Below are positions 19,502-30,569 of a stretch of DNA of 64,000 nucleotides, piece after piece (the stretch's first letter is position 1; every line of letters starts with the position of its first letter). Position numbers and translations under genes: made by a program. Below the pieces are notes generated by a model. That model saw nothing but the letters and a program-made list of their open reading frames with translations. It was not told the DNA's origin and made no database searches. Origin of the DNA: Escherichia coli (GTDB lineage Bacteria; Pseudomonadota; Gammaproteobacteria; Enterobacterales; Enterobacteriaceae); assembly GCF_003790525.1 (NCBI RefSeq), contig NZ_CP033635.1. One strand, 5' to 3'.

Positions 19502-20287
19502 CTACGCGTCTTCCTGGGGAAGGATGATTTCAATTTGGCTGTCTTGTAAGCGTGATTTTAGCGCAGCGGGCGGCAGCTCGTCGGTAAAGAGCGCAGTGAC
19601 CTGTGCCACATTACCAATTTCAACCGCCGCCGAAGCATGATACTTAGTGTGATCGGCGACCAGCAGAATATTTCTCGCGTGCGCCATCATCGTTTTCACC
19701 ACGTTAGCTTCGTTAACATCAAACTCCATCAACGCGCCATCGCTCTCAATTGCGCCTACACTTGTTACCAGATAATCGGCGCGAAAATCGGCCACAAAGG
19801 ACGCCGCTGAAGGGCCAATGATCCCACTGTTATGGGAACGCAGCGTTCCGCCAGGCACCATCACTTCAAAGCGCGGGTTGTGGTAAAGAATATGCGCCAC
19901 ACGCAGGCTGTTGGTGATTATCCGCAAATGGTTATGGTTAAGTAACGCCCGGGCAACATGCTCAACGGTCGTACCAATGGTGATAAATATTGTCGATCCA
20001 TCAGGAATATAGTCTGCCACCGCTTCGGCAATCGCTTTTTTCTCTTCAGTTTGCGAAACCTCACGCTGCTCGAACGCCGTATTAACGACGCTGGAAGCCC
20101 GACCCGCGCCACCGTGATGGCGCGTAATCAGTCCTTGCTCGCTTAATTTACGAATATCCCGGCGGACCGTCTGCGTGGAGACATCCAGCAGATTTGCCAG
20201 CTCATCAATATTCATATACCCACGCTCGGCGATCAGCATGAGGAGTTGGTCGTGCCGCGGGTTACCGGTTAGTTCGGTAAGGCTCAT
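19502..20287 (-). CDS. csqR: DeoR-family repressor of the sulfoquinovose catabolic cluster; ORF extends to 20311
   Basis: N-terminal HTH (IDELANLLDVSTQTVRRDI) plus DeoR C-terminal sugar-binding domain. Confidence 0.88.
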   Translation of the reverse strand: MSLTELTGNPRHDQLLMLIAERGYMNIDELANLLDVSTQTVRRDIRKLSEQGLITRHHGGAGRASSVVNTAFEQREVSQTEEKKAIAEAVADYIPDGSTIFITIGTTVEHVARALLNHNHLRIITNSLRVAHILYHNPRFEVMVPGGTLRSHNSGIIGPSAASFVADFRADYLVTSVGAIESDGALMEFDVNEANVVKTMMAHARNILLVADHTKYHASAAVEIGNVAQVTALFTDELPPAALKSRLQDSQIEIILPQEDA

Positions 20288-20320
20288 GAAAATTCCTCGA
20301 AAAACCATCACCCTGGCATT

Positions 20321-21217
20321 TTATACAAAAAGTGACAAAAAAGATCGGGTTTGATCACAGTCAGGGATCCCAGCTCGTCCACCGGGACGTGTGCATTTTA
20401 ACGCCGCTACACCGCTGGCGAAGCGGACTGACTCCGCTAAATCCCCACCTGTGGCCAGCGCCACCGCCAAAGCGCCGTGAAAAACATCACCCGCTCCTGT
20501 GGTATCTACCACATCAACTTTGAAGGCCGGTTGATGTTGACGCCCGCCATTTTCCAGCCAGTCGCAGCCTGCGCTGCCCTGGGTCACATAGACATGACCA
20601 TTTGTGAGCGTTTGTGCCTGTTTTAGGGCACTCGCCATCTCTTTCACGCCCGTTAAGCGCGCCAGACCCGGTTCTGAAAAAGCTGCATGATCGCTTAACG
20701 CCACCAGTTCGCTGATATCCTGCGGCGTAATATCACCGTCCAGCACGGTCATTACGCCCGCCTGCCGCGCCAGAGTGAAGGCTTTTTTCGCGCCGTCGTG
20801 CCAGCGTACATCTGCCAGCACCACGTCCCACTGAGAGAAATCAATTTCCTCCAACCACTCTGCATCTGGCAGTAGGTCTGGGCTGGGATAGTTAATGATG
20901 ATTCGCTCACCTTTGGCATCCACCATGATGGCGGATTGCGAAGATTTCGCCTGGTTATACCGTTTGGTGTAACGGGTGTTAACGCCCCAGGATTCCAGCT
21001 CTGCCAGCAGGCTGTTACCCGTGTCGTCATCACCGACGCGACCAATAAAATCGACCTGCGCCCCCAGCCTTGCCGCCGCAACCGCTGCCGTCGCCGCTGG
21101 CCCGCCACCAACTTCCGTATAATTTCTCGCCACGTATTTACCGCTCTCCGTCGGTAATCCTTCCACGTAATAAATACGATCCATCACGGTAATACCTACA
21201 CAAGCAACACGAATCAT
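20321..21217 (-). CDS. yihV: 6-deoxy-6-sulfofructose kinase (PfkB/ribokinase family); ORF extends to 21223
   Basis: PfkB-family motifs (DTTGAGD); divergent from yihU. Confidence 0.88.
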   Translation of the reverse strand: MIRVACVGITVMDRIYYVEGLPTESGKYVARNYTEVGGGPAATAAVAAARLGAQVDFIGRVGDDDTGNSLLAELESWGVNTRYTKRYNQAKSSQSAIMVDAKGERIIINYPSPDLLPDAEWLEEIDFSQWDVVLADVRWHDGAKKAFTLARQAGVMTVLDGDITPQDISELVALSDHAAFSEPGLARLTGVKEMASALKQAQTLTNGHVYVTQGSAGCDWLENGGRQHQPAFKVDVVDTTGAGDVFHGALAVALATGGDLAESVRFASGVAALKCTRPGGRAGIPDCDQTRSFLSLFV

Positions 21218-29123: not shown

Positions 29124-29165
29124 TTATAATAAACAACGCCCTGCGGGGCGTTATAAGGAGTGATT

Positions 29166-30569
29166 ATGTCTGACCATAATCCACTGACATTAAGACTGAA
29201 TCTGCGGGAAAAAATCGCCTATGGTATGGGCGACGTCGGTTCGAATTTAATGCTCTGCATCGGTACTCTGTATCTCCTCAAATTTTATACCGATGAATTA
29301 GGGATGCCTGCTTACTATGGCGGGATTATCTTTCTGGTGGCGAAGTTTTTTACCGCATTTACCGATATGCTCACCGGATTTTTACTCGACTCGCGGAAAA
29401 ATATTGGGCCTAAAGGCAAATTTCGTCCCTTTATTTTATATGCAGCGGTTCCGGCGGCGTTAATTGCAACGCTCCAGTTTATCGCCACCACCTTTAGTTT
29501 GCCGGTTAAAACGACGATTGCCACCGCACTGTTTATGATGTTTGGACTTTCATACAGTCTGATGAACTGCTCGTATGGTGCGATGATCCCGGCCATTACC
29601 AAAAACCCCAATGAGCGCGCGCAGCTCGCGGCTTACCGCCAGGGTGGTGCAACCATAGGGCTATTGATTTGTACCGTGGCGTTTATTCCGTTGCAGTCGC
29701 TTTTTTCTGACTCAACCGTCGGTTATGCCTGTGCGGCACTGATGTTCTCCATTGGCGGCTTTATTTTTATGATGCTGTGCTACAGAGGCGTCAAAGAGCA
29801 TTATGTGGACACCACGCCAACCGGACATAAGGCCAGTATTCTCAAATCATTTTGCGCGATATTTCATAATCCACCTTTGCTGGTATTGTGCATTGCTAAC
29901 CTGTGTACTCTGGCGGCATTTAATATCAAACTGGCGATTCAGGTCTATTACACCCAGTATGTGCTGAATGATATTAATTTATTGTCGTGGATGGGATTTT
30001 TCAGTATGGGATGCATCCTCGTCGGCGTATTACTGGTGCCATTAACTGTAAAATGTTTTGGTAAAAAACAGGTTTATTTAGCTGGCATGGTGCTATGGGC
30101 GGTTGGTGATATCCTGAATTATTTCTGGGGAAGTAACTCTTTCACTTTCGTCATGTTCTCTTGTGTCGCCTTTTTTGGCACGGCCTTTGTAAACAGCCTG
30201 AACTGGGCACTGGTGCCAGATACCGTAGATTACGGTGAATGGAAAACCGGTATACGTGCCGAAGGTTCTGTTTATACCGGTTATACCTTCTTTCGTAAAA
30301 TTTCAGCCGCACTTGCTGGCTTCTTGCCAGGCATTATGCTGACGCAAATCGGTTATGTTCCCAACATCGCGCAAAGCGATGCGACATTACAGGGTTTGCG
30401 TCAGCTCATTTTTATCTGGCCTTGTGCGCTGGCAATGATTGCTGCATTGACGATGGGGTTCTTTTACACGCTCAATGAGAAACGGTTTGCACTGATTATT
30501 GAGGAAATTAACCAACGCAAAAATAAAGAAATTGAGACAGAAGAAAAAACGGCTTCCGTAACGTTATAA
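29166..30569 (+). CDS. yihO: GPH-family glycoside/sulfoquinovose:cation symporter; ORF opens at 29160
   Basis: Paralog of yihP, same motifs (GDxxSNxxL, KFYTDxLG). Confidence 0.88.
   Translation: MSDHNPLTLRLNLREKIAYGMGDVGSNLMLCIGTLYLLKFYTDELGMPAYYGGIIFLVAKFFTAFTDMLTGFLLDSRKNIGPKGKFRPFILYAAVPAALIATLQFIATTFSLPVKTTIATALFMMFGLSYSLMNCSYGAMIPAITKNPNERAQLAAYRQGGATIGLLICTVAFIPLQSLFSDSTVGYACAALMFSIGGFIFMMLCYRGVKEHYVDTTPTGHKASILKSFCAIFHNPPLLVLCIANLCTLAAFNIKLAIQVYYTQYVLNDINLLSWMGFFSMGCILVGVLLVPLTVKCFGKKQVYLAGMVLWAVGDILNYFWGSNSFTFVMFSCVAFFGTAFVNSLNWALVPDTVDYGEWKTGIRAEGSVYTGYTFFRKISAALAGFLPGIMLTQIGYVPNIAQSDATLQGLRQLIFIWPCALAMIAALTMGFFYTLNEKRFALIIEEINQRKNKEIETEEKTASVTL

Follow-up and report, generated by a model that had tools for sequence, protein, structure and literature searches.

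An intact K-12-type sulfoglycolysis cluster and its divergent control region in Escherichia coli SMS-3-5

The locus described here lies within a 64,000-nucleotide stretch of E. coli DNA (the window), of which positions 19000 to 31000 are 100% identical to the genome of E. coli SMS-3-5 (NC_010498.1). It harbors csqR and yihV on the minus strand and yihU, yihT, yihS, yihR, yihQ, yihP, and yihO on the plus strand, all of them intact, followed by ompL. The genes and the elements between them are as follows:

19502-20287, minus strand: csqR (yihW), cluster repressor of the DeoR family, 261 aa
20321-21217, minus strand: yihV, sulfofructose kinase, 298 aa
21218-21384: divergent yihV/yihU control region, 167 bp
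21385-22281, plus strand: yihU, sulfolactaldehyde 3-reductase, 298 aa
22305-23183, plus strand: yihT, sulfofructose-1-phosphate aldolase, 292 aa
23199-24440, plus strand: yihS, sulfoquinovose isomerase, 413 aa
24458-24480, plus strand: perfect 10-bp-stem hairpin, CCCTCTCCCC-AAA-GGGGAGAGGG, in the yihS-yihR spacer (from sequence and RNAfold)
24559-25458, plus strand: yihR, aldose-1-epimerase (sulfoquinovose mutarotase), 299 aa
25459-25655, plus strand: yihR-yihQ spacer, in which 25467-25598 is the site of tauE presence or absence
25656-27692, plus strand: yihQ, GH31 sulfoquinovosidase, 678 aa
27738-29123, plus strand: yihP, GPH-family transporter (putative DHPS exporter), 461 aa
29135-29152, plus strand: hairpin AACGCCC-TGCG-GGGCGTT, between the yihP stop codon and the yihO Shine-Dalgarno sequence
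29166-30569, plus strand: yihO, GPH-family transporter (putative sulfoquinovose importer), 467 aa
30636-31328, plus strand: ompL, KdgM-family outer-membrane porin, intact, tenth gene of the published cluster
31338-31371, plus strand: REP element where ompL and yihN converge, its sequence read as GCCGGATGCGGCGAAAACGCCTTATCCGGCCTAC

Internal stops are absent from all nine of the ORFs from csqR to yihO, none of which carries a RefSeq pseudogene flag on NC_010498.1, and the encoded proteins are 92.5 to 100% identical to those characterized in K-12, with which the ten-gene organization (csqR-yihV divergent from yihUTSRQPO-ompL) is collinear. The preliminary description of this DNA, which had reported these ORFs as intact on the strands given above, is confirmed by the RefSeq annotation, the lack of internal stops, and the comparison with K-12. 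Its designation of the cluster as complete holds for the nine genes it named, but ompL, which is counted in the published 10-gene cluster (PMC8006165) and lies past the end coordinate of that description, had been left out.

The gene identities it assigned agree with K-12 identity, family models, and PDB matches. NCBIfam equivalog models were matched above cut-off by YihU, YihR, YihQ, and OmpL, and the solved structures of YihQ, YihV, YihS, and YihU were matched over their full length. YihV (99.3% aa identity to K-12) corresponds over residues 1-298 to PDB 7ag6 (“Sulfofructose kinase”) and possesses the sulfonate triad K27-N109-R138, D13, and the GXGD catalytic residue D244 within the motif GAGDVFH, while YihU, which scored 603 bits against NF012005 (cut-off, 348) and matched PDB 6sm7 over residues 1-298, retains R123, N174, and S178. 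YihT (99.0% aa identity to K-12), a Pfam DeoC/LacD match, carries the Schiff-base K193 of a class I aldolase along with A26, S226, S227, and R253; YihS (99.3%) matched PDB 2rgk and 7ag4 over its full length and harbors the catalytic H248/H383 pair and the sulfonate pocket R55-Q362-Q379. YihQ, whose residues 1-678 matched PDB 5aed (“Sulfoquinovosidase”), retains all five residues sought, namely, the sulfonate triad R301-W304-Y508 and D405/D472, the latter being, reportedly, the catalytic residues of Speciale et al. 2016. Sulfonate-pocket residues, including the YihQ triad and those of YihV, have been listed previously (PMC8006165), and every published catalytic and sulfonate-pocket residue that was checked is present.

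Two translation starts merit comment. YihR scored 610 bits against NF011719 (residues 1-299; model length, 300), and the additional N-terminal residues of the 308-aa K-12 annotation begin at an ATG that is ATA in the window, so that 24559 represents the shared yihR start. N-terminal truncation of yihR relative to K-12 was considered and rejected, as the longer K-12 start is not conserved and NF011719 fits the 299-aa form; yihR is the most divergent and most often absent gene of the cluster across genera. The ATG at 21223, formerly taken as the yihV start, is out of frame in Citrobacter, and both K-12 and RefSeq use the second ATG, at 21217. The divergent region, given previously as 21224-21384, was consequently located correctly but with a boundary 6 nt off, the true spacer being the 167 bp from 21218 to 21384.

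YihP and YihO, which are 99.1% and 98.5% identical to their K-12 counterparts, scored 536 and 529 bits, respectively, in full-length matches to TIGR00792 (cut-off, 231) and share 63% identity with each other, in keeping with their earlier designation as paralogous GPH transporters. OmpL scored 473 bits against the NCBIfam equivalog NF007434 (cut-off, 288), and its gene has diverged strongly from that of K-12 (dS 0.52, 14 aa changes). The uptake and export roles of YihO, YihP, and OmpL are attributed in the literature, without direct demonstration. CsqR is identical to its K-12 counterpart at 261/261 aa despite 3.2% nucleotide divergence (dN = 0, dS = 0.145), matches the Pfam HTH_DeoR and DeoRC domains, and contains Met25, the published alternative start of CsqR-s (PMC10991401). 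Across the cluster, dN/dS versus K-12 was 0 to 0.08 at dS values of 0.09 to 0.52, which indicates strong purifying selection.

The pathway steps have been demonstrated biochemically for the K-12 or Salmonella orthologs. YihQ is predicted to hydrolyze sulfoquinovosyl glycerol to sulfoquinovose, the anomers of which would be equilibrated by YihR, while YihS would isomerize sulfoquinovose to sulfofructose for phosphorylation by YihV. Cleavage of the phosphorylated sulfofructose by YihT would produce DHAP and sulfolactaldehyde, the latter being reduced by YihU to DHPS, which is presumed to be excreted; uptake and export would, by attribution, be functions of OmpL, YihO, and YihP. Expression would be repressed by CsqR, which in K-12 occupies both the yihU/V spacer and the csqR upstream region in a cooperative manner and is released by sulfoquinovose, sulfoquinovosyl glycerol, and sulforhamnose, and CRP would be expected to bind both CsqR-bound regions, as it does in K-12. 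We propose, with a probability of approximately 95%, that the cluster is a canonical, functional sulfo-EMP (sulfoglycolytic Embden-Meyerhof-Parnas) cluster of SMS-3-5 in its K-12-type “long, tauE-less” form, and its sequence offers nothing contrary to this reading. Both the cluster and its control region are already known, and the earlier characterization of the pathway as known and ordinary is correct: this is an ordinary, well-characterized catabolic locus, the main worth of which is as a control, that is, an ordinary and intact part of the window that the preliminary description read correctly.

The divergent yihV/yihU spacer is of K-12 length and identical to that of K-12 at 165 of 167 positions, differing at 21231 and 21364. 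Experimental evidence of CsqR binding to it has been presented for K-12 (PMC8006165, PMC8249747, PMC12608037), in which it is a strong target in gSELEX and gel shifts (PMC8006165, PMC8249747) and in which promoters in both directions and CRP binding have been mapped to it (PMC5816610). Its earlier designation as a CsqR target is therefore in line with published K-12 binding; that description made no mention of a second target, upstream of csqR. The elements of the two regions are as follows:

21249-21329: conserved block, 81 bp, the highly conserved part of the spacer
21254-21249, minus strand: predicted yihV -10 element, TAAAAT, within the 81-bp block
21275-21290: predicted CRP-like site, AGTGA-N6-TCAAT, within the 81-bp block
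21285-21298: putative palindrome, GTCAATTTTTTGAC, within the 81-bp block
21289-21328: four putative A-tract units in 10-bp phase, each ending in AC or TC
20318-20362, minus strand: conserved block within the yihV 3′ end, the predicted csqR promoter region
20359-20343, minus strand: predicted CRP-like TGTGATCAAACCCGATC, in the csqR promoter region
20336-20327, minus strand: GTCACTTTTT, putative element of the csqR promoter region
20325-20320, minus strand: predicted -10 element, TATAAA, overlapping the yihV stop codon
20327-20336 (A), 21271-21280 (B), and 21352-21361 (C), plus strand: exact copies of AAAAAGTGAC

Mean column identity among 57 Enterobacterales was 0.917 across the 81-bp block versus 0.56 to 0.68 for the rest of the spacer; flanking codon positions 1 and 2 scored 0.85 to 0.90, the block being at least as conserved. 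Its 46-nt core (21284-21329) showed no differences, one N being tolerated, at 28 loci outside E. coli, those of Yersinia and Hafnia among them. RNA structure, for which folding of 21293-21400, the putative yihU leader, gave no signal (z = 0.05), does not explain the conservation. We infer from sequence that the yihV promoter, along with sites for CsqR and CRP, is situated within 21249-21329, which represents the best candidate location of the CsqR operators, and so sharply bounded a candidate block could guide CsqR footprinting. A consensus scan for sigma-70 promoters and terminators across 19300-31600 returned 15 promoter-like sites versus 14.3 expected, none of them in the spacer, and inspection by eye of the published yihU transcription starts revealed no convincing fit to -10/-35 hexamers.

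A second conserved block, 20318-20362, is predicted to hold the csqR promoter. Its conservation exceeds the third-position pattern of the overlapping codons (footprint of 53 Enterobacterales), and both the transcription start of yihW (-27/-28) and a class II CRP site, as published for K-12 (PMC5816610), project onto it, while the yihV/W region is bound by CsqR in gel shifts and is the second published target (PMC12608037). The three exact matches to AAAAAGTGAC in the 64 kb all fall within the two regions for which CsqR binding has been published. At a tolerance of up to one mismatch, the 64-kb window contained 14 matches versus 5.1 +/- 2.3 expected, a number reached in 0 of 100 shuffles. Repeat finding in 20200-21450 returned many short chance pairs and was meaningful only for the AAAAAGTGAC pair. 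This motif is either a candidate CsqR box or a candidate CRP half-site, as it resembles the latter too.

Outside these two regions, the intergenic sequences offer few candidate control elements. The yihS-yihR hairpin, which we take to be a boxC-like repeat, has one mismatch in its K-12 copy; O157:H7 has a shorter spacer in its place. Footprinting upstream of yihQ detected no conserved block or operator-like motif, and a whole-window Rfam scan at gathering thresholds identified no RNA families inside the cluster. Because no comparably conserved control element is present upstream of yihR-Q-P-O-ompL, read-through from the yihU promoters is likely, and the missing footprint suggests that these genes probably depend largely on such read-through together with weak internal promoters. 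The REP element at 31338-31371, recognized by the established consensus, would mark the end of the transcription unit after ompL. The yihP-yihO hairpin (-13 kcal/mol, RNAfold) keeps 7/7 pairs in 24 distinct Enterobacterales sequences, with compensatory double changes at two pairs (in 8 and 2 sequences), and may be of use to sulfoglycolysis researchers. Its candidacy as an intrinsic terminator was rejected, as no U-run follows it.

The yihU/V region may constitute a helically phased scaffold for CsqR and CRP and, separately, the yihP-yihO hairpin may represent a previously undescribed RNA element of transporter dosage, a speculative proposal which we would place well below even odds. The former would involve the 46-nt core shared from Escherichia to Yersinia and Hafnia, the four A-tract units, and CsqR polymerizing with CRP; through the latter, the covarying hairpin would set the relative levels of the paralogs yihP and yihO. 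A further reading, which we consider improbable, is that CRP sites and core promoter elements, rather than CsqR operators, account for the AAAAAGTGAC copies and for much of the 81-bp block, in which case CsqR would make its contacts elsewhere or polymerize in a largely sequence-unspecific manner. Consistent with this, AAAAGTGA agrees with the left half of the CRP site, AAATGTGA, at 7/8 positions, the center of the AGTGA-N6-TCAAT site lies approximately 40 bp upstream of the projected start of yihV, both regions are CRP bound in K-12 (PMC5816610), and CsqR forms large cooperative complexes along DNA (PMC8006165). In the csqR promoter, however, GTCACTTTTT stands apart from the CRP-like site and is located between the -35 and -10 elements, where repressors typically bind, and the invariant core far exceeds a CRP site plus a -10 element in length. 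Moreover, the CsqR proteins of the long and short cassettes cross-bind both spacers (PMC12608037), whose shared part is the core.

The function of the cluster has likewise been viewed differently. Lactose-responsive promoters and expression of yihV, yihT, and yihS and a yihW deletion phenotype (Kaznadzey et al. 2018, PMC5816610), together with modeled docking of lactose to CsqR (PMC10991401), would accord with the cassette, or part of it (yihS, yihT, yihV, yihQ, and yihW), serving mainly as a second route of lactose degradation. This appears highly improbable as its main role, given that the enzymes are kinetically specific for sulfonated intermediates and possess dedicated sulfonate pockets (PMC8006165), all of which are conserved here, and that sulfoquinovose induces the long cassette in RNA-seq (PMC12608037). 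It is also extremely unlikely that the cluster is intact but cryptic in SMS-3-5 owing to alleles that are approximately 95% identical in nucleotide sequence to those of most E. coli: although identity of at least 99% was reached by only 105 of 5425 genomes, and its dS versus K-12 is 3 to 10 times that of flanking genes, the divergence is nearly all synonymous (dN/dS 0 to 0.08), CsqR shows no change and the control region almost none, and all key residues are kept.

The cluster is located on a polymorphic island of 15.2 kb, and among 5426 complete E. coli genomes the site was found in K-type long (~48%), long with tauE (~24%), and short (~24%) forms, counts which may be useful to sulfoglycolysis workers. 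The K-12 sulfo-EMP cluster is reportedly the subject of Denger et al. 2014. That cluster, ompL-yihOPQRSTUVW, the enzymology and structures of which are covered by Sharma et al. 2021 (PMC8006165), shares with the window all ten genes, their order and orientation, and the intergenic lengths, but synonymous divergence is unusually high (dS 0.09 to 0.27, and 0.52 for ompL, versus 0.03 to 0.05 in the flanks). The O157:H7-type long cassette likewise has the ten genes, control region, and chromosomal site in common with the window and differs in an 876-bp TauE/SafE-family gene, tauE, between yihR and yihQ, where the window, which lacks tauE, has 132 AT-rich bp (25467-25598) against 977 unrelated bp in O157:H7; no tauE remnant was detected in the yihR-yihQ spacer of the window. 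Present in 1288 of the 5426 genomes and unmentioned in the 2025 yih cassette survey (Kaznadzey et al. 2025, PMC12608037), tauE bears on the identity of the actual exporter of the sulfonate product.

In phylogroup B2, strains including Nissle 1917 and ST131 carry a “short” yih cassette (Kaznadzey et al. 2025, PMC12608037), which was identified in 1326 of the 5426 genomes and occupies the same site, between yihX and typA, as the long form of the window. It comprises 8 genes, is inverted, and encodes homologs of csqR, yihV, yihU, and yihT at 67 to 72% aa identity; it is devoid of yihQ, yihS, ompL, and yihLMN and instead harbors an epimerase, two other MFS transporters, and a Zn-dependent alcohol dehydrogenase. 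Its divergent spacer, itself diverged, keeps the conserved core and cross-binds K-12 CsqR (PMC12608037). With the GlpR/DeoR/AgaR/UlaR-type repressors, CsqR shares the HTH_DeoR and DeoRC domains, cooperative binding at more than one site, and autoregulation, and its best NCBIfam match is a GlpR-type model. It nevertheless reaches the cut-off of no named equivalog (257 bits versus 331 for GlpR) and therefore belongs to a separate orthologous group, and, unlike those repressors, it responds to sulfosugars as effectors.

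Window positions 19000 to 31000 share 100% identity with the E. coli SMS-3-5 chromosome (NC_010498.1), whose RefSeq annotation, in agreement with a mechanical ORF list, flags no pseudogene among the ten cluster genes.

Genes of the cluster (RefSeq annotation of SMS-3-5)
19502-20287, minus strand, csqR
20321-21217, minus strand, yihV
21385-22281, plus strand, yihU
22305-23183, plus strand, yihT
23199-24440, plus strand, yihS
24559-25458, plus strand, yihR
25656-27692, plus strand, yihQ
27738-29123, plus strand, yihP
29166-30569, plus strand, yihO
30636-31328, plus strand, ompL

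Comparison of the ORFs with those of K-12 MG1655 revealed no internal stops which, together with the lack of pseudogene flags, bears out the claim of the preliminary description that all named ORFs are intact. The encoded proteins share 92.5 to 100% amino acid identity with those of MG1655, and gene lengths are equal for all cluster genes but yihR. The ATG which starts the 308-amino-acid K-12 form of YihR reads ATA in the window, while a downstream ATG at 24559, common to both, yields a 299-amino-acid protein matching NCBIfam NF011719 end to end; judged from these start codons, the length difference is best read as an annotation matter. The published cluster comprises ten genes, ompL among them (PMC8006165), and the interval 19502-30569, described as complete, contains the genes named for it but leaves out ompL, which is intact and lies just past its end. 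The divergent spacer was likewise correctly located, but its boundary requires amendment from 21224-21384 to 21218-21384 (167 bp, as in K-12); the ATG at 21223, upstream of the yihV start, falls outside the reading frame in Citrobacter and is used as the yihV start by neither K-12 nor RefSeq.

Family models back every proposed gene identity. YihU, YihR, YihQ, and OmpL score well over the curated cutoffs of NCBIfam equivalogs, and the expected Pfam domains (HTH_DeoR with DeoRC, PfkB, NAD_binding_2/11, DeoC/LacD, GlcNAc 2-epimerase fold, aldose epimerase, GH31, MFS_2, and KdgM) were all present. YihO and YihP, each of which fits the GPH model TIGR00792, share 63% identity and are thus true tandem paralogues, as had been stated. 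Full-length matches to solved, biochemically characterized structures were obtained for YihQ (5aed), YihV (7ag6), YihS (2rgk/7ag4), and YihU (6sm7). YihQ of the window possesses the catalytic residues D405 and D472. All residues that Sharma et al. 2021 (PMC8006165) list as catalytic or as part of a sulfonate pocket were found in the window proteins, i.e., R301, W304, and Y508 of YihQ; R55, H248, Q362, Q379, and H383 of YihS; D13, K27, N109, R138, and D244 of YihV; A26, K193, S226, S227, and R253 of YihT; and R123, N174, and S178 of YihU. Relative to K-12, the cluster genes display dN/dS values of 0 to 0.08 at dS values of 0.09 to 0.52, indicating strong purifying selection.

The sulfoquinovose cluster is already known, and its reading as a known pathway is supported with the small corrections made here. 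Based on the biochemistry of K-12 or Salmonella orthologues, carried to the window by near-identity, YihQ would free sulfoquinovose from its glycerol glycoside, YihR would catalyze its mutarotation, and YihS would isomerize it, yielding sulfofructose and, as a side product, sulforhamnose. Phosphorylation of sulfofructose by YihV would be followed by YihT-mediated cleavage to DHAP and sulfolactaldehyde, the latter being reduced to DHPS by YihU. For OmpL, YihO, and YihP, roles in transport are putative. CsqR has been shown in K-12 to repress the cluster and to be released by sulfoquinovose, its glycerol glycoside, and sulforhamnose.

Related Enterobacterales loci (n = 61) were retrieved using YihV as the query, and the yihU/V spacer was aligned from 57. 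Mean column identity is 0.917 at 21249-21329 and 0.941 in the core at 21284-21329, against 0.56 to 0.68 in the remaining spacer and 0.85 to 0.90 at codon positions 1 and 2 of the flanking genes. This 46-nt core, TGTCAATTTTTTGACNATAAATTACAAATACGATCAAAAACAGACA, recurs without any change in 28 non-E. coli loci, from genera including Salmonella, Citrobacter, Klebsiella, Enterobacter, Kluyvera, Leclercia, Yersinia, and Hafnia. As the RNA fold of the conserved block is no better than that of shuffles (z = 0.05), the constraint acts on DNA. A minus-strand TAAAAT at 21254-21249 precedes the projected published yihV start (-25/-27) by 7 nt and, with the following, is a candidate element of the block.

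21275-21290, CRP-like AGTGA-N6-TCAAT, inside the conserved block
21285-21298, palindrome GTCAATTTTTTGAC, inside the conserved block
21289-21328, four consecutive 10-bp units, each with AC or TC at its end

The expected CsqR target, the yihV/yihU spacer, was rightly named, but a second bound region, the yihV/csqR junction (PMC12608037), had gone unmentioned. In the 64-kb window, AAAAAGTGAC is matched without mismatch exactly three times, at 20327, 21271, and 21352, all on the plus strand and within these two regions; with at most one mismatch, 14 matches occur versus 5.1 ± 2.3 expected. A separate promoter of csqR, which includes a class II CRP site, has been mapped (PMC5816610). The AAAAAGTGAC copy at 20327-20336 falls within another conserved block, 20318-20362, located in the 3′ end of yihV, and is flanked there by CRP-like TGTGATCAAACCCGATC and a -10 TATAAA which overlaps the yihV stop codon, a layout in keeping with the yihW start published at -27/-28 (PMC5816610). 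AAAAAGTGAC could partly represent a CRP half-site, and the positions given for CsqR contacts are candidates. Upstream of yihQ, no comparable footprint was found, suggesting that read-through from the yihU promoters may be largely responsible for expression of yihR-Q-P-O-ompL.

A stem-loop with a 7-bp stem (AACGCCC-TGCG-GGGCGTT, 29135-29152), located after the yihP stop and before the yihO ribosome-binding site, is preserved across 24 distinct Enterobacterales sequences, two of its pairs showing compensatory changes (AU<->GC and CG<->UA). It lacks a following U-run, is missing from genera with tauE between yihQ and yihP, and may act in the stability or processing of the mRNA. The yihS-yihR spacer contains a perfect 10-bp-stem hairpin, CCCTCTCCCC-AAA-GGGGAGAGGG (24458-24480), presumably a boxC-like repeat, which the O157-type spacer lacks. 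An Rfam scan of the whole window returned no family inside the cluster; matches elsewhere (7643-7701, 12787-12829, 34649-34717, 36607-36714, 43492-43745, 44774-44892, and 53978-59071) comprise the formate dehydrogenase gene SECIS element, ES036, STnc370, ES222, CsrC, Spot 42, and an entire rRNA operon that includes two tRNAs, a set to be expected in this part of the chromosome.

Across genera, the variable parts of the cluster are tauE and yihR. A TauE/SafE-family "sulfite exporter" gene is present between yihR and yihQ (site corresponding to window 25467-25598; positions 7918-8894 of the O157:H7 locus, L003) in 1,288 of 5,426 complete E. coli genomes, O157:H7 included, but absent from K-12 and the window, whose yihR-yihQ spacer yielded no tauE remnant; other genera carry it either there or between yihQ and yihP. 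In the 2025 survey of yih cassettes (PMC12608037), tauE goes unmentioned.

A second variable spot lies near the cluster, between fabY and yiiE (window ~14290-16100; NC_010498.1 4373462-4375276), where SMS-3-5 has a transposase gene plus a truncated hypothetical gene annotated as a pseudogene; the spot is empty in K-12 and occupied in ST131 by different genes, among them those for an alpha/beta hydrolase and nadS. At the right boundary of the yih island, adjoining typA, a 30-bp stretch (34655-34684) aligns without mismatch to the ST131 locus in either orientation and is thus a perfect palindrome.

The yih island has two haplotypes, the long one corresponding to window 19468-34651 (csqR to yihL, 15.2 kb). 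Of 5,426 complete E. coli genomes, 3,885 carry the long form across 80% or more of the query, and the alternative short cassette occurs in 1,326, namely, ST131 and other B2 strains. This dichotomy was published in 2025 (PMC12608037), where the short cassette is named only "yihTUVW." In ST131 (L002 9469-18160), the long segment is replaced by an inverted 8.7-kb, eight-gene cassette specifying an epimerase, two MFS transporters, a Zn-dependent alcohol dehydrogenase, an aldolase, a YihU-like reductase, a kinase, and a DeoR regulator. The short cassette (~66% identical) retains the 46-nt core in its spacer, which cross-binds K-12 CsqR in gel shifts (PMC12608037). Synonymous divergence from K-12 is 0.09 to 0.27 for the cluster genes and 0.52 for ompL, 3 to 10 times that of the neighbors dtd, yihY, yihN, yihM, and yihL (0.03 to 0.05), which fits recurrent recombination at the site. 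K-12 OmpL differs from that of the window by 14 amino acid changes, clustered at residues 115 to 182, whereas the O157 allele shares 99% amino acid identity with it.
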